IMG/VR virus record: IMGVR_UViG_3300033233_000005
Reading direction: 5' to 3' (one strand)
Origin: a virus
Lineage: Duplodnaviria > Heunggongvirae > Uroviricota > Caudoviricetes
Length of the DNA: 64,000 bases
In this document: piece after piece, positions 45,847 through 57,993 of the stretch
How the letters are laid out: each line of letters opens with the position of its first letter
Position numbering within the stretch: the stretch's first letter is position 1
The notes under the pieces: model-generated
What the model saw: the letters and a program-made list of their open reading frames with translations, nothing else
What the model was told of the DNA's origin: nothing
Databases searched by the model: none
Made by a program: the position numbers and the translations under genes

Positions 45847-45917
45847 GGGGCCATCGTCCAGTGGGAGGATGACGCCATGGCATGGCGTAGACGGGAGTTC
45901 AAATCTCCCTGGCTCCA
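45847..45917 (+). tRNA. tRNA-Ala (GGC)
   Basis: G3-U70 pair, anticodon loop ATGGCAT, T-arm GGGAG-TTCAAAT-CTCCC. Confidence 0.65.
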
Positions 45918-45931
45918 CAGTTTTATAAAAT

Positions 45932-46002
45932 GGGGGCGTGGTGAAGTAGGATCACAGATCCCTTGCAAGGATCAGTCGCGGGCGCACTTCCCGCCGTCTC
46001 CA
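45932..46002 (+). tRNA. tRNA-Ala (UGC)
   Basis: G3-U70, anticodon loop CTTGCAA; unusual T-loop CGCACTT. Confidence 0.55.
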
Positions 46003-46018
46003 GGTATAATTTAAAAAC

Positions 46019-46090
46019 GGGGCATTAGCTTAAATAGTAGAGCGGTACGTTCGCATCGTACAGGACCCGGAGCGTTACCGGGATGCTCCA
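46019..46090 (+). tRNA. tRNA-Ala (CGC)
   Basis: G3-U70, anticodon loop TTCGCAT; unusual T-loop AGCGTTA. Confidence 0.55.
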
Positions 46091-46100
46091 CGGTTTTATT

Positions 46101-46181
46101 GCGGGAGTGGTGGAACGGCAGACACATACGCTTGAGGTGCGTACGGGGAAACTCGTGAAGGTTCAACTCCTTTCTCCCGCA
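46101..46181 (+). tRNA. tRNA-Leu (GAG)
   Basis: class II, anticodon loop TTGAGGT, T-loop TTCAACT, A73. Confidence 0.75.
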
Positions 46182-46193
46182 GGTTTTATAAAT

Positions 46194-46273
46194 GCCGGGG
46201 TGCTGGAATTGGTATACAGGGTGGACTCAAAACCCACTGCGAAAGCGTGAGGGTTCAACTCCCTCCCCCGGTA
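46194..46273 (+). tRNA. tRNA-Leu (CAA)
   Basis: class II, anticodon loop CTCAAAA. Confidence 0.65.
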
Positions 46274-46290
46274 GGTTTGATACAAATGAT

Positions 46291-46373
46291 GCCCCGGTGG
46301 TGGAACTGGCAGACACGCTACGTTCAGGGCGTAGTGCGAAAGCGTGAGGGTTCAACTCCCTCCTGGGGCACCA
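46291..46373 (+). tRNA. tRNA-Leu (CAG)
   Basis: class II, anticodon loop TTCAGGG, CCA encoded. Confidence 0.7.
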
Positions 46374-46384
46374 GCATTATAAAT

Positions 46385-46466
46385 GGGAGCGTGGCGGAAC
46401 TGGCATACGCATTCGCCTTAAGAGCGAACGCCGCAAGGCTTGAGGGTTCAACTCCCTCCGCTCCCA
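46385..46466 (+). tRNA. tRNA-Leu (UAA)
   Basis: class II, anticodon loop CTTAAGA. Confidence 0.75.
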
Positions 46467-46482
46467 CGGTATAAATGACGTT

Positions 46483-46722
46483 ATGACAATAGAAATCGGC
46501 AAGATTAAAAGATGGTTCTCGGGGCTGTTTACCAGAATAACAAAATGGAAGTCGACAGAGTATACTAGTGTCCATAAATTAAATGGTAGAACCTTGGACC
46601 CGGATAGAGATTCTGCTATAATCGAAGAAATGAATAGGCATATTGATCATTTAGATAAGAGATTAGACGAAATGCATGACATGCTTGATGGCATCCCTAG
46701 AATGTCAAGTTTCTTTAAATAA
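46483..46722 (+). CDS. hypothetical protein inside the tRNA island
   Basis: 79 aa ORF. Confidence 0.45.
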   Translation: MTIEIGKIKRWFSGLFTRITKWKSTEYTSVHKLNGRTLDPDRDSAIIEEMNRHIDHLDKRLDEMHDMLDGIPRMSSFFK

Positions 46723-46724
46723 AT

Positions 46725-46809
46725 GCGCTTGTGGTGGAACTGGCAGACACGTTAGCCTTAGGAGCTAATGGGTAAAACCGTGGGGGTTCGAATCCCTCCA
46801 GGCGCACCA
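46725..46809 (+). tRNA. tRNA-Leu (UAG)
   Basis: class II, anticodon loop CTTAGGA, CCA encoded. Confidence 0.75.
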
Positions 46810-46815
46810 GGACTT

Positions 46816-47049
46816 ATGGATTTTATAGTTAATGCAGCAGTGCCTCGCAACAAGGTATATTTCACAACGGCACCGCATAAGATCACGATACCGGCCCACA
46901 TAGATGTAGAGGTTAAGGTCTTTGACAACGCGCCGTCATTACGATATACAATCACGGCATTTGAACAGATGGGTACGGGAATCTTTAATACAGGTATATT
47001 GCCACCTGATATCTATGGAGAAGAAGATGGGCACTGGGCGCTGGTATAA
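46816..47049 (+). CDS. hypothetical protein
   Basis: ATG 7 nt after the tRNA CCA. Confidence 0.4.
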   Translation: MDFIVNAAVPRNKVYFTTAPHKITIPAHIDVEVKVFDNAPSLRYTITAFEQMGTGIFNTGILPPDIYGEEDGHWALV

Positions 47050-47092
47050 AATCCTCAGCAATAAAACAGAATAAACAAAGCAGGAGGCTGAC

Positions 47093-47374
47093 ATGACCAT
47101 TTCTCAAGCTATCGGTTGGTTGAAGACCCTCAGGGAACGCCATACGGAGTTGGTGAACCTTCGGAATACCAACTCCCACCGTGAAGATCGGTTGTTCGGT
47201 GACAAGCAGACAATCAAGCGGGAACCGACTTATGACGTCAAGAAACTGGACAAGTTAGTCAATAAGGTAGCTATGGAAGTCCGCAAGCTGGACGAGGCTA
47301 TCAAGGAAACCAATGCTAAGACCGAGGTAATCGGTTTCAAGAAGGATGAGAACGCTCTCGGTCAGGTAGAATAA
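47093..47374 (+). CDS. hypothetical coiled-coil protein
   Basis: RBS AGGAGG. Confidence 0.5.
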   Translation: MTISQAIGWLKTLRERHTELVNLRNTNSHREDRLFGDKQTIKREPTYDVKKLDKLVNKVAMEVRKLDEAIKETNAKTEVIGFKKDENALGQVE

Positions 47375-47379
47375 ATCTA

Positions 47380-47740
47380 ATCCTACGGGAAAGGGTGGTG
47401 AACGGTCGGGGCTATAAACATAACGATCTCATACCTCACACTGCATTAACCGAGCCATGATATCAGCATGGCACAGTGTGGAGTTGGCATCTTAAAAACG
47501 AGTACGGCGGGGATGGGGCAGGATAGTCCGGTTGTTTGGACATGTCTCCGGACGATAAACTCTAAAGAAATGTAAATGTGAGGATACTCACTCCAAAATA
47601 TGGACATCCCTTACAGGATACCATTATTACTTGTTGCTGATTGGTGTAGTGGCTATATGCCCTTGATTGTTACCCTAGTTGATAGTTGGTAACATAACCC
47701 TCTTGCGACCTGTCCGTGCTCCTGGTATAATATACATAAT
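47380..47740 (+). ncRNA. candidate structured noncoding RNA
   Basis: no ORF; nested inverted repeats CACACTG..GCCATG-ATATCAG-CATGGC..CAGTGTG, GTCCGG..GACATGTC..CCGGAC, GTTACC..GGTAAC; ends at a TATAAT-like element before tRNA-Pro. Confidence 0.3.
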
Positions 47741-47817
47741 CGGGGTGTGGGTTAATGGGAGACCGCCTGCCTTGGGCGCAGGAGTTTGAGCAGGTTCGAT
47801 TCCTGCCACCCCGACCA
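47741..47817 (+). tRNA. tRNA-Pro (UGG)
   Basis: anticodon loop CTTGGGC, T-arm GCAGG-TTCGATT-CCTGC, CCA encoded. Confidence 0.7.
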
Positions 47818-47862
47818 GCTTTATTCTACACCGCTTCGCGCTTGGCGCGGGCGGCGAAGCTG

Positions 47863-47869
47863 TATAAAA
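47863..47869 (+). promoter_or_regulatory. TATAAAA in the loop of AAGCTG/CAGCTT hairpin
   Basis: GAAGCTG-TATAAAA-CAGCTTGCGG. Confidence 0.3.
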
Positions 47870-47893
47870 CAGCTTGCGGACAGCCACCTCGGC

Positions 47894-48160
47894 ATGATAC
47901 AATCTAAGATAGAACAATACGCAATGGCGGTAGAAGGAATGGCAGACATTATTTGTACTGAGATTGAACAACGGCATATGTCAATATTAATTCCTGGCAT
48001 GCGAATGATGACAGACGCATCCCGAACCGATTCGGGGCGACAGGAAGCCCTCCTATATTTGAAACCGCAGTTGGAACGAATTAGAGACACGGCAGAGCGA
48101 CATGGAGTTATAGAGGTCCGAGATCAAGCAGTAAGTTGCCTGTCGTACTTCTCGAATTAA
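47894..48160 (+). CDS. hypothetical protein
   Basis: in-frame ATG downstream of tRNA-Pro. Confidence 0.4.
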   Translation: MIQSKIEQYAMAVEGMADIICTEIEQRHMSILIPGMRMMTDASRTDSGRQEALLYLKPQLERIRDTAERHGVIEVRDQAVSCLSYFSN

Positions 48161-48199
48161 AGGTTCCAACAACTCAGGTTTCCAGTGGATATGATCAAT

Positions 48200-48271
48200 G
48201 CTAGCGTGGCAGAATGGCTATGCACTTTCCTTGTAAGAAAGAACATGGGGGTTCGATTCCTCTCGCTAGCT
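48200..48271 (+). tRNA. tRNA-Thr (UGU)
   Basis: anticodon loop CTTGTAA. Confidence 0.65.
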
Positions 48272-48332
48272 CGGCATTTTAAAGCCCGACTTTAATAAGT
48301 CTTGGGCGGGTACTTTGACAACTGAGGGCTTT

Positions 48333-48383
48333 GGTAATGCGGTAGCAGCAGTATTGTTGCCGCATTACCTGCATTTATATATT
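48333..48383 (+). terminator. hairpin plus U-rich tail (intrinsic terminator or processing hairpin)
   Basis: GGTAATGCGG...CCGCATTACC 10-bp stem then TGCATTTATATATT. Confidence 0.4.
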
Positions 48384-48466
48384 GCGGGGTCGCCTAACTG
48401 GTCGGGCACCTGACTTTGGATCAGGAGCGGGAAACCGCACTCTAGGTTCGAATCCTAGCCCCGCAG
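48383..48466 (+). tRNA. class-II-architecture tRNA with anticodon UUG (Gln anticodon), G73
   Basis: long variable arm GCGG-GAAA-CCGC, anticodon stem CCTGA/TCAGG, loop CTTTGGA, U1-A72. Confidence 0.45.
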
Positions 48467-48478
48467 GTCTAGTATAAA

Positions 48479-48566
48479 GGAAGGTTGGCAGAGTGGCCTA
48501 TCGCGCTTGTTTGCTAAACAAGTGGGTGTAACAACTCCACAGGTTCGAATCCTGTACCTTCCGCCA
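48479..48566 (+). tRNA. tRNA-Ser (GCU)
   Basis: class II, anticodon loop TTGCTAA, G73, CCA encoded. Confidence 0.7.
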
Positions 48567-48569
48567 GGT

Positions 48570-48998
48570 ATGATAAACACATATGTATTACTCGGTGGAA
48601 GCACCAATATGCGAAAGGCAGTGATTGAAACTCCGTGTGGAAAGTGGGAAATTAGCGGAATCGAAGAAAATACAGTTTTTCTTGCATTACGTACCAAACA
48701 CATAGAGATTGTAACTGACCCGAATACCTTATCAAGATTACGGGTGCCAATGATGCAGCACCTGAGATTTAGGCTGGTCCCATTTAAATTCAAATGGTAC
48801 CATCGAATAGATTCAAAGGGTTACATTGAGAGACCCTTTCCCTTTGGTGTCTGTTTAGGCGATTGGGTCCGGGCACAAAGATTGATCCATACGATTGAGA
48901 GAGATATGACATACTTCTGCGATCCTTTGATGAAAGAGGATACGGAAGTCAGCATCAAGGTGAAACCGATCAAACAGATGTTTTCATTGCTCCCATAG
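48570..48998 (+). CDS. DPL-tail family protein
   Basis: CCAGGTATGATAAA junction; ...MTYFCDPLMKEDTEV; 3' end overlaps tRNA-Asp. Confidence 0.5.
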   Translation: MINTYVLLGGSTNMRKAVIETPCGKWEISGIEENTVFLALRTKHIEIVTDPNTLSRLRVPMMQHLRFRLVPFKFKWYHRIDSKGYIERPFPFGVCLGDWVRAQRLIHTIERDMTYFCDPLMKEDTEVSIKVKPIKQMFSLLP

Positions 48999-49062
48999 TT
49001 TAGTAGTAAAACACCCGCCTGTCACGCGGAAATCAGGAGTGCGATTCTCCTTGGGAGCGCCA
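48989..49062 (+). tRNA. tRNA-Asp (GUC)
   Basis: anticodon loop CTGTCAC; T-loop TGCGATT; CCA encoded. Confidence 0.65.
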
Positions 49063-49063
49063 G

Positions 49064-49138
49064 CAGGGGATAGTGAAAAAGTATCACATTCGCTTGGGGT
49101 GCGAATAGTCCCGGTGCAACTTCCGGGTCCCCTGACCA
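49064..49138 (+). tRNA. tRNA-Pro (GGG)
   Basis: anticodon loop TTGGGGT; 8-nt T-loop TGCAACTT. Confidence 0.55.
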
Positions 49139-49157
49139 GCTTATTTTGATGTGAAGC

Positions 49158-49230
49158 CAGGCTTTAGCTCAACGGTAGAGCATCGCCCCCTGATAGGGCG
49201 AGGTAACTGGTTCGACTCCAGTAAACCTGG
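49158..49230 (+). tRNA. tRNA-Ile(GAU)-like scaffold with register-shifted anticodon loop (reads as CCUGAUA)
   Basis: TAGCTCAACGGTAGAGC D-arm; CGCCC-CCTGATA-GGGCG with C33 and one extra nt at the D/anticodon junction; acceptor C-A mismatch. Confidence 0.4.
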
Positions 49231-49243
49231 ATAAGCATCATTT

Positions 49244-49317
49244 CGGGGAATAGTGAAAAGGCATCACACGTGTTTCGGGTACACGCAGTCCGAGTTCGAG
49301 TCTCGGTTCCCCGACCA
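49244..49317 (+). tRNA. tRNA-Pro (CGG)
   Basis: anticodon loop TTCGGGT, canonical T-loop TTCGAGT, CCA. Confidence 0.75.
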
Positions 49318-49337
49318 GCTTATTTTGACATGAAGTT

Positions 49338-49414
49338 AGGGTTGTAGCTCAGCACGGAGCGGCAGGAGGCGTGGACCTCCCCAGCGGTAGCGGGTGAAAC
49401 TCCCGTCAAACTAA
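49338..49414 (+). pseudogene. degenerate tRNA-like element (pseudo-tRNA)
   Basis: canonical D-arm TAGCTCAG..GAGC and T-arm GCGGG-TGAAACT-CCCGT but 6-nt anticodon loop, 4-nt D/anticodon junction and 2 acceptor mismatches. Confidence 0.45.
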
Positions 49415-49442
49415 ATAATGTCACGGTCAGCTAGCATGAAGT

Positions 49443-49546
49443 CAGGCTGTAGCTCAGTAATGGAGCAAACCCCCGCCATAAGGGGATCAATTCCGATCCT
49501 TTTACGGGGGGGCCAAAGGTAGCTGGTGAAACTCCAGTCAACCTGA
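49443..49546 (+). tRNA. tRNA-like gene with CAU-containing loop and about 33-nt insertion (possible intron or degenerate tRNA)
   Basis: acceptor CAGGCTG/CAACCTG, D-arm, T-arm GCTGG-TGAAACT-CCAGT; CCCC-GCCATAA-GGGG plus hairpin GGATC-AATTCC-GATCC insert. Confidence 0.4.
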
Positions 49547-49560
49547 ACAGTGCTATTTAT

Positions 49561-49649
49561 TGGCAGGACGCGAATGTTGGTTAGTCGCATCCGGCTGTTA
49601 CCCGGAGATCATCGAAAGATGAACGTAGGTTCGATCCCTACCCTGCCAG
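49561..49649 (+). tRNA. class-II-architecture tRNA with anticodon GUU (Asn anticodon), G73
   Basis: anticodon stem TCCGG/CCGGA, loop CTGTTAC, variable arm CATC-GAAA-GATG, U1-A72. Confidence 0.45.
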
Positions 49650-49659
49650 GATTTATAAT

Positions 49660-49734
49660 GGTGAGTGTAGCTCAATGGTAGAGCGCTGGTCTGTGGCACC
49701 AGAAACGCGGGATCGATACCCGTCATTCACCCCA
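49660..49734 (+). tRNA. tRNA-His (GUG)
   Basis: G-1, C73, anticodon loop CTGTGGC, CCA. Confidence 0.75.
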
Positions 49735-49872
49735 GCTTAGTAAGGATACTGGAAGTAGCCAACTTGCGTAAAATAGGAGCCGGTGTTTCCTTAGTAGGTC
49801 CTCTCAAACTGGACCGAAGGGTTGCCAGTGGCTGTCCGTGCGCGGGATAATCGGGCCCAGTATCCCTTTAAT
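49735..49872 (+). other. unassigned structured spacer in the tRNA island
   Basis: hairpins GGTCC-TCTCAAACT-GGACC and GGGATA..TATCCC; no tRNA fold found. Confidence 0.3.
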
Positions 49873-49946
49873 GGGGATGTCGTCTAGAAGCAGGACACCT
49901 GGCTTTCATCCAGGAGAAGAGGGAGCATTACCCTCCATCCCTACCA
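49873..49946 (+). tRNA. tRNA-Glu (UUC)
   Basis: anticodon loop CTTTCAT; T-loop AGCATTA; CCA. Confidence 0.6.
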
Positions 49947-49956
49947 GTTTCTTAAT

Positions 49957-50031
49957 GGGCGATTAGCTCAGCAGTAGAGCGCTTGATTCACATTCAAGAG
50001 GTCGCAGGGGCAGCACCTGCATCGCTCACCA
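49957..50031 (+). tRNA. tRNA-Val (CAC)
   Basis: anticodon loop TTCACAT; T-loop GGCAGCA; CCA. Confidence 0.65.
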
Positions 50032-50034
50032 TTT

Positions 50035-50109
50035 GGCCCCGTAGCTCAGCGGTAGAGCGTCTGGTTTACATCCAGAAGGCCGTAGGGTCAGCACCTACCG
50101 GGGTCACCA
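50035..50109 (+). tRNA. tRNA-Val (UAC)
   Basis: anticodon loop TTTACAT; T-loop GTCAGCA; CCA. Confidence 0.65.
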
Positions 50110-50112
50110 GGT

Positions 50113-50430
50113 ATGATAAATCTAAAGAAGCATCCAATCAGATTTTACCAGATAGACAATGACGGCGATAACTATCTATATTTCGCTTATGGTCGTAAAT
50201 GCTATGATTGGGCATCCAATAGACCAGACAGAGATGGGATAAGCATTACAGAGATCACAAAGGAAGACATGATGCAATCGGGTATACAGAGAATAACCAA
50301 TTTAGCCGATTTTTATAGTCTAAATGCGATTCAATTTGCGGTGGCTAAATATTTACTGAATCACCCAGATATTTTGAATGATCCGTTGTGGACTGGCGCA
50401 GATGTTGAATTACCAAGTCTTGAGAAATAA
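50113..50430 (+). CDS. DPLW-tail family protein
   Basis: CCAGGTATGATAAA junction; ...NHPDILNDPLWTGADVE. Confidence 0.55.
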   Translation: MINLKKHPIRFYQIDNDGDNYLYFAYGRKCYDWASNRPDRDGISITEITKEDMMQSGIQRITNLADFYSLNAIQFAVAKYLLNHPDILNDPLWTGADVELPSLEK

Positions 50431-50433
50431 CAT

Positions 50434-50519
50434 GGAGGGAATCCGGATGGTTGAGGAACCTGTTTCGAAAACAGCTGGCCCTAATAGGCTCGTGGGTTCG
50501 ATTCCCACTCCCTCCGCCA
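50434..50519 (+). tRNA. tRNA-Ser (CGA)
   Basis: class II, anticodon loop TTCGAAA, G73, CCA. Confidence 0.65.
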
Positions 50520-50565
50520 GCTATTATGATGAAGATATGTGGGAAGTAGGATCTGACTAATTAAC

Positions 50566-50653
50566 GGAAAGTTGGCCGAGTGGTTTAAGGCGTACGCTTG
50601 GAGAGCGTAAGAGTGTAACAACTCCGTAGGTTCGAATCCTACACTTTCCGCCA
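50566..50653 (+). tRNA. tRNA-Ser (GGA)
   Basis: class II, anticodon loop TTGGAGA, G73, CCA. Confidence 0.8.
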
Positions 50654-50654
50654 T

Positions 50655-50729
50655 GGTGGGGTAGCCAAGTGGTAAGGCAACTGCCTGCAAAGCAGTTCTA
50701 CGTCGGTTCGAATCCGACCCTCACCTCCA
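50655..50729 (+). tRNA. tRNA-Cys (GCA)
   Basis: anticodon loop CTGCAAA, U73, CCA. Confidence 0.75.
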
Positions 50730-50758
50730 GCATTATAAACTTAAAAATAGGAGAGAAA

Positions 50759-51028
50759 ATGAAACTGCAATTTCCATGTTGGTTGACCGGCCACAAATGG
50801 GAACTGTACGGTACCGCCAGGCATGATAGAGTAAGACATGATAGATTAGGCAACGAAACCACAAGGTGGGAGGAGGTACCAGCAATAGTTAATCAGTGTA
50901 AATGCTGTGGAAAGAGAGTAGGATTCACAGTATTACCCGATAGTAATGAATCAACCAATGTAGATTGGCTAATGAGTCTGGCCAGCTTCGGTAAAATACG
51001 ATCTCCGAACAGGATGTCCGAGGATTAA
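50759..51028 (+). CDS. Cys-containing small protein (CKCCGK)
   Basis: in-frame ATG after GGAGAG. Confidence 0.45.
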   Translation: MKLQFPCWLTGHKWELYGTARHDRVRHDRLGNETTRWEEVPAIVNQCKCCGKRVGFTVLPDSNESTNVDWLMSLASFGKIRSPNRMSED

Positions 51029-51030
51029 TT

Positions 51031-51105
51031 GGCCCTGTCGTCTACTGGCTAGGACAGGTCCCTCTCAAGGACCAGAAACGAGTTCAATTCTCGTCAGGGC
51101 CACCA
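51031..51105 (+). tRNA. tRNA-Glu (CUC)
   Basis: anticodon loop CTCTCAA, T-loop TTCAATT, CCA. Confidence 0.75.
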
Positions 51106-51117
51106 GTACTATATAAT

Positions 51118-51188: not shown

Positions 51189-51194
51189 GGAATC

Positions 51195-52622: not shown

Positions 52623-52628
52623 GGCATT

Positions 52629-52757: not shown

Positions 52758-52758
52758 C

Positions 52759-52840
52759 GGGTGTGACCCCTAATTGGTCAGGGACTAGCCTCTTAAGCTA
52801 GCGACGCAAGTCACAGTGGGTTCGATCCCCACCACACCCA
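52759..52840 (+). tRNA. class-II-architecture tRNA with anticodon CUU (Lys anticodon), A73
   Basis: anticodon stem CTAGC/GCTAG, loop CTCTTAA, variable arm GAC-GCAA-GTC. Confidence 0.45.
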
Positions 52841-52851
52841 GGTTTTATAAC

Positions 52852-52922
52852 GGGTTGGTAATTCAACAGCAGAATAGCGGGCTTTTAACCCGTCCACGAG
52901 GGTGCGACTCCCTCCCAACCCA
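52852..52922 (+). tRNA. tRNA-Lys (UUU)
   Basis: anticodon loop CTTTTAA; T-loop TGCGACT. Confidence 0.65.
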
Positions 52923-52930
52923 GGAATAAT

Positions 52931-53146
52931 ATGGAACTAAAGAAACTTACAATCGAGTTTGACGAGGCAGAAATGCATGCTCTAATTACCACTGGGGAGC
53001 TATTGCACCAGATGTCTATCAGTGGTAAATTTAGTGAGTGGAAGCGCAGTTTAACATTATACGACAGGAGAAGGTATACTGTCGCCATGGACAGAATGGC
53101 GCTATTAGTCTTCAAATTACAGAAGGCATTGAAAGACGTCAAATAA
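52931..53146 (+). CDS. hypothetical protein
   Basis: 71 aa. Confidence 0.45.
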   Translation: MELKKLTIEFDEAEMHALITTGELLHQMSISGKFSEWKRSLTLYDRRRYTVAMDRMALLVFKLQKALKDVK

Positions 53147-53147
53147 C

Positions 53148-53233
53148 GGGTAGGTGGCCGAATGGTTAGGCGACAGTCTGTAAAACTGTGGAGCTTGTCT
53201 CTGACGGTGGTTCGATTCCACCCCTACCCACCA
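53148..53233 (+). tRNA. tRNA-Tyr (GUA)
   Basis: class II, anticodon loop CTGTAAA, A73, CCA. Confidence 0.8.
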
Positions 53234-53246
53234 GTTTCATAAATTC

Positions 53247-53320
53247 GCGGGGTTGGCGTAATAGTAACGCACTTCCTTGCCAAGGAAGGGTCACCGGAGC
53301 GTAACCGGTACTCCGCTCCA
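53247..53320 (+). tRNA. tRNA-Gly (GCC)
   Basis: anticodon loop TTGCCAA, U73; T-loop AGCGTAA; CCA. Confidence 0.65.
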
Positions 53321-53338
53321 CCTTCATAGGAGTTCATC

Positions 53339-53590
53339 ATGTGGGACAAGATCACCGATTTCACCGATCAGCTAGACTGGTCTGACGTGTTTTTCATTGT
53401 ATCGGGTTTCTCATTCGGCATAACGGCGGCTACGTTCTGGATAAATTTCTTTGATGACGTTAGGGAATGGGGAGCGGGGCTGACCCTATTATTGCTATTA
53501 ATATGGGTGTCAGCTGGCATTATATCAATGCGTGGCGCGCTAAAGTATAAAGAGAGCGTCAGCAAAAAGGCCGGTGTCGTACAAAAGTAG
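53339..53590 (+). CDS. hypothetical membrane protein
   Basis: RBS AGGAG; two transmembrane helices. Confidence 0.5.
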   Translation: MWDKITDFTDQLDWSDVFFIVSGFSFGITAATFWINFFDDVREWGAGLTLLLLLIWVSAGIISMRGALKYKESVSKKAGVVQK

Positions 53591-53595
53591 TACAC

Positions 53596-53610
53596 GCCCT
53601 TGGTAAGGGC
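53596..53610 (+). terminator. short hairpin after gene (weak terminator candidate)
   Basis: GCCCTT-GGT-AAGGGC; no U-tail. Confidence 0.2.
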
Positions 53611-53651
53611 GAAACAAGGGGGCAGTACCCTTCACTGGCTTGGCATTATAG

Positions 53652-53725
53652 GCGGGATTCGTATAGTGGTAATACCCTAGACTTCCAATCTAGAGACGTG
53701 GATTCGATTTCCACATCCCGCTCCA
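53652..53725 (+). tRNA. tRNA-Gly (UCC)
   Basis: anticodon loop CTTCCAA, U73, T-loop TTCGATT, CCA. Confidence 0.8.
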
Positions 53726-53731
53726 GTCATT

Positions 53732-54211
53732 ATGAGATTTATCAGCGCATATTGGCATGTCAATAAACATCTGAGTATATCATGTGGCAAGCACATATGG
53801 ATAGTTAGTAGAATAACTAAGAATAGAATCACAATAATACGCAGAATGCGGGTCGTAGGGCACACGGACGATGGGCATGAATATCATGGTACCTACAGGC
53901 TCCCTAGAAACGTGAAATGGATTCAACCTAATGGTGAATTGGGTAGTATAGAAACCAGTTATGGGCCGAATCGGCGTAGAGAATACGACACCACTCATAG
54001 ATATTCGATCACACAGATAAAGAAGGAAATACGAGACAGTAAGATATTCTACGATCCATTAGCTCCGTATAAAGGGTTTCACGGGCTAACCATCGATATA
54101 TTACGGGAGAATCGTATAGTAGCTATTACTTCCGCCTCCAAAGCGGAAAACAGTGGTGCGATTCCACTTTCTCCCGCCAGCAATAATCAACAAGTAAAGG
54201 AGAGCAAATGA
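53732..54211 (+). CDS. DPL-tail family protein (extended C-terminus)
   Basis: ...DSKIFYDPLAPYKGFHG. Confidence 0.45.
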   Translation: MRFISAYWHVNKHLSISCGKHIWIVSRITKNRITIIRRMRVVGHTDDGHEYHGTYRLPRNVKWIQPNGELGSIETSYGPNRRREYDTTHRYSITQIKKEIRDSKIFYDPLAPYKGFHGLTIDILRENRIVAITSASKAENSGAIPLSPASNNQQVKESK

Positions 54212-54744
54212 ACAAGCAAGAATGGATAGATGCATATCACGCTCTGGCCAAGAAAGTGGCTCCCAGGTTACCCTCTGTTACCGAATTGGGTGCCGCTTGT
54301 CAAATGACCAGAGAACGTGCCAGGCAGATAACCAATAAATACAAACTGCCAGTTGATCATTTATCTAGCATCAGGAAAGCTAAACGCATAGAAGCGGTCA
54401 TAAGCGCACACAGTGCATTAGAATCAGAATTACATAGACCACCACAGTTACGTGAAGTGCATAAGAAGCTTGGTAATTCCTATGAATTGCAGGGTATTAG
54501 GCTGGCGTTGCGTTCTAACAAGATGCATTCTATTCATGGTAGTGTAAAAACAGATCGAAGGGTTAAATTCATCAAATATTATAATGAATTTAAACGAACA
54601 TTTCACCGTGTTCCATATGGAGCAGAGATGGCTAGGAAACTTAATCTTTGGACCCTGACTGCCATTAGAATGGCGCACGAGCTAAAATTGCCTCTATTTA
54701 AGGGCACACTTCTACCGGTATCACAGAGGGGTACCTACTGGTGA
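54208..54744 (+). CDS. putative sigma-70 region-4-like HTH protein
   Basis: ATGA; ELGAACQMTRERARQITNK resembles the sigma region 4.2 helix. Confidence 0.4.
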   Translation: MNKQEWIDAYHALAKKVAPRLPSVTELGAACQMTRERARQITNKYKLPVDHLSSIRKAKRIEAVISAHSALESELHRPPQLREVHKKLGNSYELQGIRLALRSNKMHSIHGSVKTDRRVKFIKYYNEFKRTFHRVPYGAEMARKLNLWTLTAIRMAHELKLPLFKGTLLPVSQRGTYW

Positions 54745-55475
54745 GTGTGCTAGACACCGGTATTAAGGGATATACCCAATTAGATAGGCAGGCTATGGCT
54801 AAGGGTGGTGGATCAGTAATCATAGGGATAGACGAAGTTGGAATGGGGCCGTTGGCCGGTCCCGTTTGCGCGTGTGCTCTGATTGTCGGGAAGGAACCTA
54901 AGCAGGGGGAACTGGTGGTAAACGATTCCAAGCTGTTGTCACCCAAGAGGCGCGAGGAATTGTTCCCCAAGATCAGAGATAACAGCATCTTTGAATTGGG
55001 ATGGGTGACGGTCAAAGAAATCAACAAACTACAGAACCTTAACGCTGCTGGAAATCTGGCTAGGGAACGGGCATTAAAGAAACTGATCAAAACGATAGGC
55101 TGGCTGCATCCGAATGCGATTATTTGCGATTTCTTCCCGATAGACGCCGGTAACATACCCGTTCTCGCGGTTCCCAAGGCCGATGCCAATTCCTTCATCG
55201 TAGCGTGTGCGTCAATCGTGGCCAAGGTAGCTAGAGATAGATGGATGATCGCGCAAGCCAAGAAATATCCGGAATACATGTGGGATAAGAATAGCGGATA
55301 CAGAACACCAGAGCATCACATGGCACTAAAGATGCATGGCATCACCCCGATACATAGGACTTATCTGGTAGACAAATATTTAAAGGACTACACTATTGCT
55401 GGGTCGCCTAATGGTATGGCAACTGTCTCTGAAACAGTCACAATGGAGGTTCGAACCCTCCCCCAGCAGGAATGA
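54741..55475 (+). CDS. rnhB: ribonuclease HII
   Basis: GTGA; VIIGIDEVGMGPLAGPV and DSKLLSPKRREELF motifs; 3' end overlaps tRNA-Gln. Confidence 0.9.
   Translation: MSVLDTGIKGYTQLDRQAMAKGGGSVIIGIDEVGMGPLAGPVCACALIVGKEPKQGELVVNDSKLLSPKRREELFPKIRDNSIFELGWVTVKEINKLQNLNAAGNLARERALKKLIKTIGWLHPNAIICDFFPIDAGNIPVLAVPKADANSFIVACASIVAKVARDRWMIAQAKKYPEYMWDKNSGYRTPEHHMALKMHGITPIHRTYLVDKYLKDYTIAGSPNGMATVSETVTMEVRTLPQQE
55397..55469 (+). tRNA. tRNA-Gln (CUG)
   Basis: anticodon loop CTCTGAA, T-arm GGAGG-TTCGAAC-CCTCC, U1-A72; lies inside the rnhB ORF. Confidence 0.6.
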
Positions 55476-55660
55476 TGCATAAACTTAGCATACCAATAGC
55501 TAAATTACTGTTGATTAAAGAGAAATTACCAGAAGAATTGGCGATGCAACTAGAGGCATACAAGGTGGCAGGAGAGATAGTCAATGCTGACCTGAGTATA
55601 CTGGTCTCTGTATCAGAAGAGACTTATAACATATTACTTAGCTCCGAATTCCATGATTGA
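55472..55660 (+). CDS. hypothetical protein
   Basis: ATGA-coupled. Confidence 0.4.
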   Translation: MMHKLSIPIAKLLLIKEKLPEELAMQLEAYKVAGEIVNADLSILVSVSEETYNILLSSEFHD

Positions 55661-55895
55661 TACCAATCCTTTACTGAATAAGGAGATAATGGATCAGACT
55701 TTCAGCTATGAATGCGTAGTATGCGTTTCTAGAAATTGGGCATACGGATACTGGCATTTATTTGGATGGAGATTATTTTGGACTATACACATATATGAAT
55801 TCTGTACAGAATGCTACAAAGAATCCGATGTCTTACAGCCCGAAAGTAGATTTACTAAATGGCTATTTAAACATGGCTGGCTAACCACACCATAG
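55653..55895 (+). CDS. hypothetical Cys/Trp-rich protein
   Basis: ATGA-coupled. Confidence 0.4.
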   Translation: MIDTNPLLNKEIMDQTFSYECVVCVSRNWAYGYWHLFGWRLFWTIHIYEFCTECYKESDVLQPESRFTKWLFKHGWLTTP

Positions 55896-55903
55896 GAGAA
55901 GAT

Positions 55904-56407
55904 ATGAAGAATAGGATGCGCGAGCCAGTAAAAGAGGAACAGGGCATACACAAGAAGTGGTATGAAGAGGCCAAGAAGATGACTCTTAAAGATCTTCCTA
56001 AATTCATAGAGAAGTTGGATGAGATGTACGAACACGATTACGGCACTGTTTGTCATTCTATAGCCGCCGCTGCTTTAGCCACTGCCAACGCCATGAATAG
56101 GGGTAAGGGGAGTCGTGGAGGTATTACTGGATTTCAGTCTGGCGCAGTTATGTGGCAGTTTATAACTGGATGGGGATTATATGAGAAAGATGCCCCTCTG
56201 CACATTATCGACTATAACGACATGCTATACCCACAGTCTGTTGGTAAGTTCACCGAGATCAGCGCTGACACGTGGGAACATCTACAGAAAGAGGCTAAGA
56301 CCAGATTAAAAGAAGATAAGGATAAGTCGGCGCATCCCAATGTACGTGCCCATTGGCAATTAATAATAGATGGGGTCGTCCCATTTGGGTATAAAATAGA
56401 GAAATAA
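55904..56407 (+). CDS. hypothetical protein
   Basis: RBS AGGAG; 167 aa. Confidence 0.5.
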   Translation: MKNRMREPVKEEQGIHKKWYEEAKKMTLKDLPKFIEKLDEMYEHDYGTVCHSIAAAALATANAMNRGKGSRGGITGFQSGAVMWQFITGWGLYEKDAPLHIIDYNDMLYPQSVGKFTEISADTWEHLQKEAKTRLKEDKDKSAHPNVRAHWQLIIDGVVPFGYKIEK

Positions 56408-56413
56408 AACGTT

Positions 56414-56489
56414 GGACCGGTAGCCTAGAGGACAGGCACTGAGCTTCTACCTCAGCTTCACGCGGGTTCGATTCCTGCCCGGTCCGCCA
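56414..56489 (+). tRNA. tRNA-Arg (UCU)
   Basis: anticodon loop CTTCTAC, CCA. Confidence 0.7.
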
Positions 56490-56529
56490 GCATTATAGCC
56501 AACGAGATAAATACGATTTGACACGATGC

Positions 56530-56604
56530 GGGGAATTCGTCCAATGGCTAGGACATTAGCCCGACATGCTAAAAACACTGGTTCGAATCCAGTATTCCCT
56601 ACCA
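56530..56604 (+). tRNA. tRNA-Val (GAC)
   Basis: anticodon loop CCGACAT (C33), T-loop TTCGAAT, CCA. Confidence 0.6.
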
Positions 56605-56605
56605 T

Positions 56606-56680
56606 CGGGTTGTGGTCCAATAGATAAGACAGCAGCCTCCGAAGCTGCAAACGGGAGTGCAAATCTCCCCAACCCGGCCA
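56606..56680 (+). tRNA. tRNA-Arg (CCG)
   Basis: anticodon loop CTCCGAA, C1-G72, CCA. Confidence 0.65.
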
Positions 56681-56688
56681 GGAATAAT

Positions 56689-56949
56689 ATGATAAATAAA
56701 CTTGAATTAAAATGCGCATTGTCTGGCAAAAACATACAATGGATATTTATGGCGATGCTACTGATAATATTCAATACACTTATGGTATATGTTAATTATC
56801 CGCATAAGCGTTGCTTGATTAATGTTCTAGCTGCGTTGGTCCCACTTAGTATACTATGGGACAGAATCCGCATGGCTAGAATAGACTTGAAATTGCAGAA
56901 GGAGATAGACGAGCTAATGGAGTTAATATACAAACATGAAACGCATTAG
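56689..56949 (+). CDS. hypothetical membrane protein
   Basis: ATG after the tRNA; two transmembrane helices. Confidence 0.45.
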   Translation: MINKLELKCALSGKNIQWIFMAMLLIIFNTLMVYVNYPHKRCLINVLAALVPLSILWDRIRMARIDLKLQKEIDELMELIYKHETH

Positions 56950-57406
56950 TAAATCTCAGTATTACATGTCTCTGGTGAACGTAGTTAAATTGCGTTCACA
57001 TGACGCCGAGACACAGGCTGGCGCGGTTTTGATAAAGAAAGACACAGGTGCGGTGATCGCCACAGGATTTAACGGATTCGTAAGGGGTGCCAATGATGCA
57101 GCATTACCCAATACCAGACCAGAAAAATACAAGCACATAATACATGCAGAAGAGAATCTGATAGCCCATTGCGCTAGGCATGGCATATCAATGTCCGGTT
57201 GTGAGATATACATCAACTTCGCACCGTGCGAACATTGCGCCAGATTGTTATGGCAGTGCGGAATAGATACTATAATCATTGAAAGTACCGATGCGACTCC
57301 GTCATTTAAGAAATATTTTGAGGCTATGACCACTATGAAGGATATAGCAGTAAAGATGACCACTACGCCAGAGCATCATACGGTATTAAAATTAAAATCT
57401 AAATAA
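56936..57406 (+). CDS. dCMP/cytidine deaminase (CDA fold)
   Basis: HAEENLI...PCEHCARLL zinc-binding motifs. Confidence 0.8.
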   Translation: MKRISKSQYYMSLVNVVKLRSHDAETQAGAVLIKKDTGAVIATGFNGFVRGANDAALPNTRPEKYKHIIHAEENLIAHCARHGISMSGCEIYINFAPCEHCARLLWQCGIDTIIIESTDATPSFKKYFEAMTTMKDIAVKMTTTPEHHTVLKLKSK

Positions 57407-57407
57407 T

Positions 57408-57499
57408 GCCCCTGTAGCATAATGGTAGTGCAGCAAGCTTATACCTTGCAAGCCCTAGATTGGGGCGCGATGGGGGTTCGATTCCCTCCAGGGGTACCA
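57408..57499 (+). tRNA. class-II-architecture tRNA with anticodon UAU (Ile anticodon), A73
   Basis: anticodon stem GCAAG/CTTGC, loop CTTATAC, 22-nt variable arm GCCC-TAGATTG-GGGC, CCA. Confidence 0.45.
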
Positions 57500-57505
57500 G
57501 TTATC

Positions 57506-57835
57506 ATGATCAAGATAATGAAGACCATAGACAGACCGAAGTATGAGGGTAATTTCTATGTCCAGACACCCGTTGGTCTATGGTGGTTAAATGGAAACGC
57601 CGATGGTTGGTTAGAATGGATGTCCACCGCAGCCCGTAGTATATTGGATAGACCAGAAGCCAAATTACACAGGCTAACTGCAGAAGACATAATTAGACCA
57701 TGGGTAGCAGCTATGATCAGATCCGTAGAAGAACACCAATACATGTTCTTTGATCCGTTCGCGCAGATAGAATACAACCATAGTATGTTACATAGAACTA
57801 AGATCGTAAGAATGCCATACAACGATCCGAATTGA
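57506..57835 (+). CDS. DPL-tail family protein (DPFAQ)
   Basis: ...HQYMFFDPFAQIEYNH. Confidence 0.5.
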   Translation: MIKIMKTIDRPKYEGNFYVQTPVGLWWLNGNADGWLEWMSTAARSILDRPEAKLHRLTAEDIIRPWVAAMIRSVEEHQYMFFDPFAQIEYNHSMLHRTKIVRMPYNDPN

Positions 57836-57839
57836 ATAT

Positions 57840-57911
57840 GCTGGCGTGGCAGAATGGCTATGCACTCCGCCCGTAACGGAGACAATGTAGGTTCAATTCC
57901 TACCGCTAGCT
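57840..57911 (+). tRNA. tRNA-Thr (CGU)
   Basis: anticodon loop CCCGTAA, T-loop TTCAATT. Confidence 0.65.
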
Positions 57912-57921
57912 CGTCTTAATT

Positions 57922-57993
57922 GGGCTTGTCGTTCAACAGATAGGACTAGCGCCTACGAAGCGCTGAATGGGGGTGCGACTCCCTCCAAGCCCG
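57922..57993 (+). tRNA. tRNA-Arg (ACG)
   Basis: anticodon loop CTACGAA; T-loop TGCGACT. Confidence 0.65.

Follow-up and report, generated by a model that had tools for sequence, protein, structure and literature searches.

A nearly complete tRNA set with partly remodeled scaffolds in a probable large phage

Why would a virus encode a transfer RNA (tRNA) for almost every codon, and why would some of these tRNAs have an extra hairpin in their variable region? Both questions are raised by a 64,000-nt stretch of viral DNA from IMG/VR (record IMGVR_UViG_3300033233_000005), which we call the window. Its plus strand includes an island of 44 tRNA genes. Taken as a whole, the region is probably the tRNA array of a large tailed phage, which would give the phage a nearly autonomous decoding set whose scaffolds have been remodeled in part. 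Below, we describe the set, the tRNAs with inserted hairpins, and the tRNAs with altered elbows, and we ask what they might be for.

A tRNA for nearly every codon

We called tRNAs across the window with two independent tools, ARAGORN at its default settings and the Rfam covariance model for tRNA (RF00005, gathering score 29 bits). ARAGORN, which the original prediction had named as a check, reported 38 genes, with 37 of them in 45847-57994 and the other at 21825. RF00005 gave 44 matches above its gathering score, which are 43 of the 44 island loci and the locus at 21825, with scores of 34.8-68.4 bits. The union of both callers is 44 island genes in 12.1 kb and one outlier, all on the plus strand, and this is exactly the count that had been predicted. 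Since the remaining 52 kb of the window has just one default ARAGORN call, the clustering is not due to chance. The gaps between adjacent genes are only 1-19 nt in 22 of 43 cases, and the sub-clusters are separated by small open reading frames (ORFs).

Seven of the loci (45932, 49873, 49957, 50434, 51118, 52550, and 53570) were found only by Rfam. Six of these have a non-canonical T-loop and the seventh, tRNA-Ser(CGA) at 50434, has an irregular D-arm region. A lower ARAGORN threshold recovers four of the seven, and the cloverleaf is the minimum free energy fold for five. Conversely, the tRNA-Asn at 49561-49650 was found only by ARAGORN: it is below the cut-off of RF00005, which passes over it because of its long variable arm, and its best match in Rfam is the tRNA-Sec model (31 bits). 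We considered whether tRNA-Ser(CGA) might be a tRNA-Sec-like or 8/4 tRNA and ruled this out; when it is read by hand, its acceptor stem pairs perfectly over 7 bp, its T-stem has 5 bp, and it ends in G73-CCA. We also dropped a low-threshold ARAGORN call at 14057-14146, which has mismatched stems and no Rfam match. The intron mode of ARAGORN gave the same 38 genes and no introns in the window, and ARAGORN found no tmRNA, suppressor tRNA, or alternative genetic code there.

The 45 genes have 42 different anticodons (the repeats are Ile-GAU, twice, and CAU, three times), and all 20 amino acids have a tRNA. By simple wobble rules, there is a phage tRNA for 60 of the 61 sense codons, and UCA alone is uncovered. 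Codon usage in 110 plus-strand ORFs of the window (15,325 codons) is fairly even, with a G+C content at third positions (GC3) of 0.54. AUA (19.6 per 1000 codons and 29% of the isoleucine codons) and CUA (14% of the leucine codons) each have a dedicated tRNA, as do both AGA and AGG, which together account for 42% of the arginine codons. CCA is encoded in 26 of the 45 genes. Family scans of the window's ORFs found no synthetase, CCA-adding enzyme, or enzyme of tRNA repair or processing. Because 19 of the 45 genes lack CCA and the window has neither a synthetase nor a CCA-adding enzyme, these tRNAs still rely on host enzymes.

The original prediction listed complete isoacceptor sets for Leu (five genes), Ala (three), Pro (three), Val (three), Arg (four), and Ser (three), and all of these are correct. 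The gene sequences also bear out G3-U70 in all three tRNA-Ala, G-1 and C73 in tRNA-His, U73 in tRNA-Cys, and the statement that many of the genes encode CCA. For other amino acids, the list needs revision. There are three tRNA-Thr genes (UGU, GGU, and CGU) rather than two; Asn and Trp, which it omitted, are both present; Gln and Lys have two genes each rather than one; and instead of a single tRNA-Ile there are two with GAU and one with UAU. The count of three CAU genes is right, but one of them is the gene at 21825 and just two are in the island. (Initiator features are absent from all three, at 21825-21898, 52215-52289, and 52550-52622.) The island ends at 57994 rather than 57993. The prediction also passed over the unusual parts of the array, which are the four tRNAs that combine a class II shape with class I anticodons and the covariation of T-loop and D-loop. 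Finally, the array had been placed at the upper end of phage tRNA repertoires. It is indeed very large, but it lies within the published range, as complete huge phages have up to 67 tRNAs (PMC7162821).

The island and its tRNA genes, along with the outlier, are listed here by position and strand. Unless another basis is given, each was called by both ARAGORN and Rfam.

45847-57994, +, tRNA island of 44 genes in sub-clusters
21825-21898, +, tRNA(CAU) of elongator Met or Ile2 type, non-initiator, T-loop AUCGUUC (ARAGORN; Rfam 66.3 bits)
45847-45918, +, tRNA-Ala(GGC), G3-U70
45932-46003, +, tRNA-Ala(UGC), G3-U70, T-loop CGCACUU with G55 (Rfam 51.7 bits; ARAGORN at a lower threshold only)
46019-46091, +, tRNA-Ala(CGC), G3-U70, elbow variant (D-loop AAAUAGUA, T-loop AGCGUUA)
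46101-46182, +, tRNA-Leu(GAG)
46194-46274, +, tRNA-Leu(CAA)
46291-46373, +, tRNA-Leu(CAG), CCA encoded
46385-46467, +, tRNA-Leu(UAA)
46725-46809, +, tRNA-Leu(UAG), CCA encoded
47741-47817, +, tRNA-Pro(UGG)
48200-48272, +, tRNA-Thr(UGU)
48383-48467, +, extra-armed tRNA-Gln(UUG) (ARAGORN; Rfam 54.6 bits)
48479-48566, +, tRNA-Ser(GCU)
48989-49062, +, tRNA-Asp(GUC), elbow variant (D-loop AGUAGUA, T-loop UGCGAUU)
49064-49138, +, tRNA-Pro(GGG), elbow variant
49158-49231, +, tRNA-Ile(GAU), copy 1
49244-49317, +, tRNA-Pro(CGG)
49561-49650, +, extra-armed tRNA-Asn(GUU) (ARAGORN; below the Rfam tRNA cut-off)
49660-49734, +, tRNA-His(GUG), encoded G-1, C73
49873-49946, +, tRNA-Glu(UUC), elbow variant (D-loop AGAAGCA, T-loop AGCAUUA) (Rfam; minimum free energy cloverleaf)
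49957-50031, +, tRNA-Val(CAC), T-loop GGCAGCA, D-loop without GG (Rfam 53 bits)
50035-50109, +, tRNA-Val(UAC), T-loop GUCAGCA
50434-50519, +, tRNA-Ser(CGA), 7/5 acceptor/T-stem, G73 and CCA, irregular D-arm region (Rfam 34.8 bits)
50566-50653, +, tRNA-Ser(GGA)
50655-50729, +, tRNA-Cys(GCA), U73 (ARAGORN; Rfam 68.4 bits)
51031-51105, +, tRNA-Glu(CUC)
51118-51189, +, tRNA-Ile(GAU), copy 2, elbow variant (D-loop AAUAGUA, T-loop AGCGUAA) (Rfam; minimum free energy cloverleaf)
52125-52200, +, tRNA-Arg(CCU)
52215-52289, +, tRNA(CAU), U1-A72, C73, Met or Ile2
52307-52382, +, tRNA-Phe(GAA), elbow variant
52550-52622, +, tRNA(CAU), T-loop GGCAGAA, D-loop without GG (Rfam 51.5 bits)
52759-52840, +, extra-armed tRNA-Lys(CUU) (ARAGORN; Rfam 49 bits)
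52852-52922, +, tRNA-Lys(UUU) of ordinary length, elbow variant
53148-53233, +, tRNA-Tyr(GUA), normal bacterial class II
53247-53320, +, tRNA-Gly(GCC), elbow variant
53570-53640, +, tRNA-Thr(GGU), T-loop GGCAGUA, D-loop without GG (Rfam 44.1 bits)
53652-53725, +, tRNA-Gly(UCC)
54105-54179, +, tRNA-Trp(CCA), elbow variant
55396-55470, +, tRNA-Gln(CUG) of ordinary length, U1-A72, G73
56414-56489, +, tRNA-Arg(UCU)
56530-56604, +, tRNA-Val(GAC)
56606-56680, +, tRNA-Arg(CCG), elbow variant
57408-57499, +, extra-armed tRNA-Ile(UAU) (ARAGORN; Rfam 61.1 bits)
57840-57912, +, tRNA-Thr(CGU)
57921-57994, +, tRNA-Arg(ACG), elbow variant

Four tRNAs with an inserted hairpin

Four of the genes, of 82-92 nt, have a stem-loop in the variable region: tRNA-Gln(UUG), tRNA-Asn(GUU), tRNA-Lys(CUU), and tRNA-Ile(UAU). 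Their variable regions are 16, 18, 14, and 22 nt long, respectively, so all of them have the stem-loop of over 10 nt that characterizes class II tRNAs, and a five-arm cloverleaf is the minimum free energy fold for all four. Class II tRNAs also have anticodons for Leu, Ser, or Tyr, and these have UUG, GUU, CUU, and UAU instead.

The body of each molecule fits its anticodon. tRNA-Gln(UUG), whose arm has a 4-bp stem and a GAAA loop, has U1-A72, G73, and a D-arm that begins U8-C9-G10-C11-C12, and it shares all of these with the ordinary tRNA-Gln(CUG) at 55396. The tRNA-Asn(GUU) at 49561 is the sole tRNA-Asn of the set; it has U1-A72, G73, and an arm with a 5-bp stem and a GAAA loop. tRNA-Lys(CUU) has the GGGU acceptor start and the A73 of the ordinary tRNA-Lys(UUU) at 52852, and its arm has a 3-bp stem and a GCAA loop. 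tRNA-Ile(UAU) has A73 and CCA, C4-G69, C5-G68, and a class I D-arm. Because the acceptor, discriminator, and D-arm features match the amino acid of the anticodon, we read these four as tRNAs for Gln, Asn, Lys, and Ile that have gained a hairpin, and not as tRNAs for Ser or Leu with changed anticodons. All four armed types recur in other phage contigs, and for Ile and Asn the stems of the arms are shown to covary.

The extra arm of tRNA-Ile(UAU)

The extra hairpin of the window's tRNA-Ile(UAU) is GCCC-U-AGAUU-G-GGGC, with GAU at the center of the loop. The rest of the molecule has a 7/5 acceptor/T-stem layout (the acceptor is GCCCCUG...CAGGGGU-A) and a D-arm, GCAU-AAUGGUA-GUGC, with a 4-bp stem and a 7-nt loop that contains GG. 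BLAST gave full-length matches to this tRNA in Synechococcus phage DSL-LC02 and Lactobacillus phage LpeD, and in both of these genomes the gene is unannotated. From these three sequences, we built the pattern TTATAC..AGATT..GGTTCGANTCC, which is present in more than 120 viral contigs among the matches listed and at 103 sites in 185,579 species genomes of bacteria and archaea, mostly in Acidobacteriota and often within tRNA arrays. As the searches used exact patterns and listed matches, these family counts are lower bounds.

A sample that was selected for AGATT is biased by construction. This is corrected by a scan that leaves the arm unconstrained (CTTATAC, then 20-34 nt, then GGTTCGANTCC), which gave 58 new loci among the matches listed. 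These include 33 distinct long tRNA-Ile(UAU) sequences, and in 32 of these 33, again among the matches listed, GAU is at loop positions 3-5. The loops are otherwise diverse (for example CAGAUAA, UAGAUGA, CUGAUUA, UUGAUAG, and UGGAUUG), and the lone exception has a UUCG loop. Another scan, for CTGATAA within the arm, turned up about 15 tRNA-Ile(UAU) genes in which the loop of the arm, CUGAUAA, is an exact match to the tRNA-Ile(GAU) anticodon loop. As a side note, six loci (L303, L312, L319, L305, L316, and L341) have the CUUAUAC loop, a TTCGA T-arm, and a paired acceptor with an irregular region in between, and ARAGORN makes no call there.

The arm is also conserved as a structure. In 98 distinct viral sequences, it has exactly a 4-bp stem and a 7-nt loop, and the two variable pairs of the stem are paired in 97-99% of these sequences, versus 42-46% after shuffling, and each of the two takes five pair types. 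G, A, and U occupy loop positions 3, 4, and 5 in at least 109 of 120 distinct sequences, and the flanking positions vary. Most of the remainder of the 120 reflects a register shift by our simple hairpin finder. As to the body, 119 of 120 viral family members have the 7/5 layout; of 119 members, 118 have A73, 97 encode CCA, 78 have C4-G69, and 76 have C5-G68. C5-G68 is a determinant for TilS, the enzyme that this tRNA would not need.

If we number the loop of the arm as 32-38, then 96 of 98 sequences have C-G at the 29-41 place, and the 38 place is mostly A. On the real anticodon arm, the loop is CUUAUAC, so it has U34 and C38, and just 41% of the family has C29-G41 there. Among ordinary phage tRNA-Ile(GAU) genes from those loci, the share with C29-G41 is 72%. 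For comparison, tRNA-Ile identity in E. coli depends on G34 or lysidine (L34), A35, U36, t6A37, A38, A73, C4-G69, U12-A23, and C29-G41 (PMC9976931). The set of G34/L34, A35, U36, A38, and C29-G41 is not found on the real anticodon arm of these tRNAs, and its equivalents are present on the extra arm. Furthermore, the isoleucyl-tRNA synthetase (IleRS) of E. coli is about 360-fold less efficient with the UAU anticodon than with LAU (PMC3575796, Table 1).

Because the extra arm holds exactly the elements that are lost from the UAU arm, we propose that it could be a surrogate anticodon arm. By reading AUA with U34, the phage's tRNA would be freed from TilS, and the phage cannot alter the host's IleRS, which recognizes UAU poorly. 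We infer that the inserted hairpin may act in place of the anticodon arm of tRNA-Ile(GAU) and would offer to IleRS the G34-A35-U36, A38, and C29-G41 elements that are missing from the UAU arm. Both hairpins lie between the D-arm and a 5-nt spacer before the T-arm, and either one could in principle stack as the anticodon branch. The tRNA would then be "two-headed," with its UAU hairpin read by the ribosome and its GAU hairpin by IleRS, and the other arms and the altered elbows described below would be further re-engineering of the scaffold. We offer this picture tentatively, as a possibility and not as our expectation.

Several points weigh against it. In known class II tRNAs, the variable arm points away from the position that the anticodon arm takes on a class I synthetase, and the mimic would be usable by IleRS only if the five-way junction could rearrange. 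The mimicry is partial, as the 33 place is A and the 37 place is U in most arm loops. Nor is the arm obligatory: Bacillus subtilis can live with a tRNA-Ile(UAU) suppressor that lacks it (PMC3919564), and there are a few phage tRNA-Ile(UAU) genes with no arm.

How does this tRNA compare to known ones? In tRNA-Ile2, the C34 of a CAU anticodon is made into lysidine; the window's tRNA has UAU instead, yet its acceptor is of the Ile type (A73, C4-G69, C5-G68). Reading AUA via U34, which bypasses TilS, is known from the unarmed tRNA-Ile(UAU) of Mycoplasma mobile (PMC3575796) and the B. subtilis suppressor (PMC3919564). Lactic acid bacteria also have an unarmed tRNA-Ile(UAU) that reads AUA via U34 (cited in PMC9976931). 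These systems meet the charging problem with a changed IleRS, which in M. mobile has an arginine (Arg865) where tilS-bearing bacteria keep a tryptophan (PMC3575796), whereas the phage's tRNA carries a GAU-bearing arm.

The most similar tRNAs are the allo-tRNA(UAU) genes of Acidobacteria (Mukai et al., PMC5389517), which also have a UAU anticodon and a long variable arm. What defines allo-tRNAs is an acceptor/T-stem layout of 8/4 or 9/3 together with a long, tRNA-Sec-like D-stem that ends in a tetraloop; among their non-Ser anticodons, UAU is the commonest. The window's tRNA-Ile(UAU) has the long arm and the non-Ser anticodon, but it lacks such a D-stem and its layout, like that of most viral copies, is 7/5 with an ordinary D-arm. 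Six UAU allo-tRNAs were reported to be inactive as amber suppressors, and the group was suggested to be possible Ser acceptors or RNAs with a non-translational role; the available text does not describe the GAU loop. We note that replacing UAU with CUA for this test may itself have disturbed identity or folding. In our searches, the acidobacterial allo-type genes (L138, L139, L146, and about 35 other loci) come from many Acidobacteriota genomes and are nearly identical to each other, with the arm GCGC-CAGAUUA-GCGC and A73-CCA, and they often have 10-30 other tRNA genes within 8 kb. Nematodes have nev-tRNA-Ile(UAU), again with a long variable arm and a UAU anticodon (PMC3333845, PMC4300185); these eukaryotic tRNAs are class II in body and accept leucine in vitro, as opposed to the class I Ile body and GAU-loop arm of the window's tRNA. 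We found no earlier description of the phage-type armed tRNA-Ile(UAU) or of its GAU loop in the literature that we searched, which was mostly without subscription journals.

The arms of tRNA-Gln, tRNA-Asn, and tRNA-Lys

The arms of these three tRNAs are of a different kind. They have stems of 3-5 bp with GNRA tetraloop caps (GAAA or GCAA), and their loops have no anticodon-like signal. They too have counterparts in other phages. Mesorhizobium phage Cp1R7A-A1 has 88-nt genes that are annotated as tRNA-Asn and tRNA-Lys; the Asn arm (CAUC-GAAA-GAUG) is almost identical to the arm of the window's tRNA-Asn, and the Lys arm has the identical GCAA loop on a compensated stem. (We also observed that the tRNA-Lys CUU and UUU genes of this phage, at 2561-2648 and 2882-2969 of MT188704, our L016, are 88 nt long with a tRNA-Ser-like D-arm, a variable arm, and U73.) A strict pattern for armed tRNA-Asn matched 41 viral contigs, with about 30 distinct sequences; their stems, of 2-6 bp, covary, and almost every one of them has U1-A72 and G73. 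For tRNA-Gln(UUG), a pattern that requires a long variable region matched 54 viral contigs, most of them with U1-A72 and G73. One lineage among these is abundant and has a weakly predicted stem, and several others arose independently and form clear hairpins. No viral contig matched an exact 29-mer from the window's armed tRNA-Gln.

Armed tRNAs for Lys, Thr(UGU), Glu, Gly, Pro, Met, and Ile(GAU) are also found in phage arrays. One IMG/VR contig (L111, 6630-12584) has six armed types, for Glu, Thr, Lys, Met, Ile(GAU), and Gln, side by side, so some phages have the inserted hairpin as a general trait of their tRNAs. In the literature that we searched (with the same coverage), we found no description of armed Asn, Gln, or Lys tRNAs, and some GenBank records label armed genes plainly as tRNA-Ile, tRNA-Asn, or tRNA-Lys.

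What might these arms do? [quoted passage not shown] A hairpin at positions 44-48 would sit beside these contacts with the anticodon stem and the D-loop. So the GNRA-capped arms might be a steric shield or a structural brace, which would leave the tRNA usable and hinder host nucleases that hold the anticodon stem and the D-loop. This idea is weakly supported. Two considerations count against it. The class II synthetases for Asn and Lys (AsnRS and LysRS) approach from the variable-loop side, and the arm might hinder charging by these enzymes rather than help it. Also, because tRNAs for Gly, Pro, Glu, and Met have arms as well, the match between armed tRNAs and known nuclease targets is no more than suggestive.

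There are precedents for phage tRNAs that neutralize defenses: tRNA-Lys, tRNA-Thr, and tRNA-Asn of T5 act against PARIS (PMC11464382, PMC12409363), and tRNA-Tyr acts against retron Eco7 and Septu (PMC11555353, PMC13096335). As in the T5-type cases, the phage here encodes tRNA species that are cut by nucleases, with recognition sites that diverge from the host's. For instance, the window's tRNA-Lys(UUU) has U36-A-A-C-C-C where the E. coli target has U36-A-A-U-C-A (PMC12409363), which is a difference in sequence only. The known examples have point substitutions in the anticodon stem-loop or the D-loop; in the window's tRNAs, a whole hairpin has been inserted.

Altered elbows

A different change affects a third of the set. 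In 15 of the 45 tRNAs, the T-loop has G55 (as UGC.., AGC.., GGC.., or CGC..) instead of U55, and 14 of these 15 have A-G in the D-loop in place of G18-G19. All 30 of the tRNAs with U55 have GG, so the canonical elbow, with G18G19 and U55C56, is present in 30 of 45 genes. Within the elbow-variant group, three genes have the T-loop GGCAG.A.

Elsewhere this is rare: at other viral loci, G55 is present in 17 of 1,284 tRNAs called by ARAGORN (16 of these 17 lack GG), which is probably an underestimate because ARAGORN passes over such tRNAs. We take the change to be a coordinated swap of the G18-U55 contact, with G19-C56 kept. It would remove the sites of the host enzymes that modify positions 54 and 55 and that make Gm18. 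We found no earlier description of the A18/G55 elbow in the searched literature, again mostly without subscription journals.

Genome context

Positions 44741-64000 of the window (19.3 kb) are identical to part of a 163,875-bp metagenome contig (ENA ERZ27248239, k141_1314216). That contig holds the island at 3290-24024, and the window reaches 41 kb upstream of its position 1. The genome is probably circular or circularly permuted, or else the window comes from another assembly. (For a protein from 3827-4408 of the window, the sole record is a 3.7-kb contig of a different sample.) Downstream of the window, the contig encodes an adenylosuccinate synthase, a RecA-like protein, and a helicase. The ORFs between the tRNA sub-clusters are small ORFs without an assigned function, an HNH endonuclease, an RNase HII, and a protein of the dCMP deaminase family. 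Those in or beside the island with family matches are:

51572-52114, +, HNH endonuclease ORF in the island (PF01844, 1.3e-13)
54741-55475, +, RNase HII ORF in the island (PF01351, 1.2e-32; the exact protein is on the 163,875-bp ENA contig)
56936-57406, +, dCMP/cytidine deaminase-family ORF, ComEB-like (family models)
58040-58969, +, ATP-dependent DNA ligase ORF that flanks the island (phrog_114, 7e-60)

As the deaminase lies beside tRNA-Ile(UAU) and tRNA-Arg(ACG), we considered whether it might be a phage TadA, and this is ruled out: it matches models for dCMP deaminase and ComEB.

Comparing the island to 50,697 phage records by megablast and blastn gave no close relative, only matches to single tRNAs. 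The best protein relatives of an AAA ATPase from the window are about 33% identical (tblastn, phage records). We also sought syntenic islands via RNase HII and the ligase, in viral contigs and a protein collection, and the relatives at 33-50% identity had no tRNA genes nearby; relatives of the ligase on IMG/VR contigs are 41-46% identical, and the ligase ORF, with the boundaries that we drew, has no exact record.

The single-strand gene order, the PHROG matches, the HNH, RNase HII, and ligase ORFs, the viral relatives of the ligase, and the contig of about 164 kb are all consistent with a large tailed phage. On the other side, family and PHROG scans found no capsid, tail, terminase, or other virion gene in the window. 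Two other features of the window may be mentioned. From 4400 to 14400, there is no ORF of 150 or more amino acids, and instead there are about 40 plus-strand ORFs of 75-147 amino acids, with no family match among the ORFs scanned; this looks like an early-gene region. Also among small ORFs, at 1891-1955 on the plus strand, there is a match to the type-P5 twister ribozyme (RF02684), with 48.4 bits versus a gathering score of 37.6 and the conserved core aligned.

Discussion

Large clusters of tRNA genes are known from phages such as T5, T4-like phages, and the cluster C mycobacteriophages. The island is a further case of these arrays: it has dozens of tRNA genes, tightly packed on one strand, with small ORFs and a homing-type HNH endonuclease between them, and its sequences differ from those of any host and presumably support translation. 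Two things set it apart. It has a nearly complete set (42 anticodons for 60 of 61 codons) in a genome of about 164 kb, and one third of the tRNA genes have a non-canonical elbow, and four carry an inserted variable arm. The armed class I tRNAs lack the defining features of allo-tRNAs and nev-tRNAs.

The purpose of the island would be translational autonomy, evasion of defenses, or both. The original prediction offered strong codon-usage compensation or insulation from host tRNA-targeting defenses, and our best-supported reading, a nearly autonomous decoding set, would combine the two. Phage mRNAs that are rich in AUA, AGA/AGG, and CUA could be translated however scarce the host's tRNAs were and whatever became of them, as the set would supply tRNAs for codons that many hosts decode poorly and also replace host tRNAs that are depleted or cleaved during infection. 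A nearly complete set that includes tRNAs for common codons fits independence from the host's pool better than it fits selective topping-up. Insulation from defenses is plausible too, given that there are arms on Lys and Asn tRNAs, which are target species of PARIS/AriB (PMC12409363), and that the elbows are remodeled. More broadly, the scaffold changes seem to argue that host enzymes (synthetases, nucleases, and modification enzymes) have shaped these genes.

Pure compensation for codon usage is the classical explanation for phage tRNAs. It would have the phage carry tRNAs only for the codons that it uses often and its host uses rarely, and the odd structures would be neutral drift. AUA, AGA/AGG, and CUA, which are rare in many bacteria, are indeed used heavily here and each has its own tRNA. 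We nevertheless think that this explanation is unlikely to suffice. The completeness of the set argues against purely selective compensation, as even the commonest codons and all 20 amino acids are covered. Drift leaves unexplained both why GAU stays invariant, on stems that covary, in more than 100 unrelated contigs and why the coupling in the elbow is so strict, where 14 of 15 tRNAs with G55 lack GG at 18-19 versus 0 of 30 with U55. If evasion of defenses were the main driver, then the island would replace host tRNAs that nucleases cut, and the arms and elbows would confer resistance. This is possible, although we are doubtful that it is the whole story. It fits the phage tRNAs that neutralize PARIS, retron Eco7, and Septu (PMC11464382, PMC11555353, PMC13096335), the recurrence in phages of armed tRNAs for Lys, Asn, and Thr(UGU), the position of the arm next to both the 40|41 cut and the D-loop that AriB reads on its Lys(UUU), Thr(UGU), and Asn(GUU) targets (PMC12409363), and the loss of the G18, U54, and U55 sites of host enzymes. 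However, species with no known nuclease also have arms, and the signature of the Ile arm is sequence-specific, which points to a synthetase and not to shielding. In any case, defense evasion overlaps with our preferred explanation, a nearly autonomous and partly remodeled phage set, and does not contradict it. Lastly, is this a phage at all? The lack of a capsid, tail, or terminase gene in the window would also be expected of a tRNA array on a bacterial chromosome or plasmid, as in Acidobacteriota or Actinomycetota, and many bacterial loci with armed tRNA-Ile(UAU) hold 10-30 tRNAs per 8 kb. Yet all of the genes are on one strand, with dense arrays of ORFs of about 100 amino acids without known function, and the PHROG matches, the 41-46% identical ligases on IMG/VR contigs, the downstream genes (adenylosuccinate synthase, RecA-like protein, and helicase), and a size of about 164 kb all suit a large phage, so we find a bacterial origin hard to credit.

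For the armed tRNAs themselves, other roles can be imagined. They might be mis-charging adaptors for SerRS, LeuRS, or TyrRS (the seryl-, leucyl-, and tyrosyl-tRNA synthetases), in which case Gln, Asn, Lys, and AUA codons would be read in part as Ser or Leu. SerRS recognizes a long variable arm together with G73, and the armed tRNA-Gln and tRNA-Asn both have this G73 as well as G2-C71. The Lys tRNAs of Cp1R7A-A1, with their Ser-like D-arm and U73, would also suit such a role, and there are precedents in the nev-tRNA-Ile(UAU) that is leucylated in vitro (PMC3333845) and in the allo-tRNAs that put Ser at Leu codons in E. coli (PMC5389517). We judge this to be very unlikely, given that nearly all of the armed Asn and Gln tRNAs have U1-A72 versus G1-C72 in bacterial tRNA-Ser, that the armed tRNA-Gln is a close paralog of the island's ordinary tRNA-Gln, that the arms are short (3-5 bp), and that tRNA-Ile(UAU) has a class I D-arm. 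Also, the phage has no other tRNA-Asn than the armed one, so changing Asn to Ser throughout the proteome would hit the phage itself. Another thought is that tRNA-Ile(UAU) uses its arm as a second functional anticodon arm, or that some other partner acts there (for instance a modification enzyme, the ribosome, or a toxin-antitoxin system), and that the arm is no determinant for a synthetase. The perfect CUGAUAA loop in the arms of about 15 contigs fits with this. So do the acidobacterial allo-tRNA(UAU) genes, which have the same CAGAUUA arm and which are reported to lie near toxin-antitoxin loci and to be inactive as amber suppressors (PMC5389517). But most of the arms lack U33 and a purine at 37, which decoding requires; the swap of UAU to CUA in the suppressor assay may itself remove Ile identity; and what the arm has at the 29-41 place (C-G) and at the 38 place (A) corresponds specifically to synthetase determinants. 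A partner other than the synthetase therefore seems improbable to us.

A large array as such is expected biology. What these genes add is that phages alter the tRNA scaffold itself, beyond the anticodon loops. They also reveal a blind spot in annotation: ARAGORN passes over 7 of the 44 island genes and Rfam over one, and two copies of the armed tRNA-Ile in cultured phages are unannotated. Concrete candidates for escape from tRNA-targeting immunity are found in the A18/G55 elbows and in the armed tRNAs for Lys, Asn, and Gln. If the two-headed reading of tRNA-Ile(UAU) is true, then identity and codon reading are physically separate on one molecule, which would be a new solution to the problem of decoding AUA and AUG. 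Phages and some Acidobacteriota could decode AUA in any host, without TilS or an altered host IleRS, and the abundant and puzzling allo-tRNA(UAU) genes would be explained. It would also be a natural precedent for uncoupling the identity of a tRNA from its anticodon, which would be useful for engineering the genetic code.

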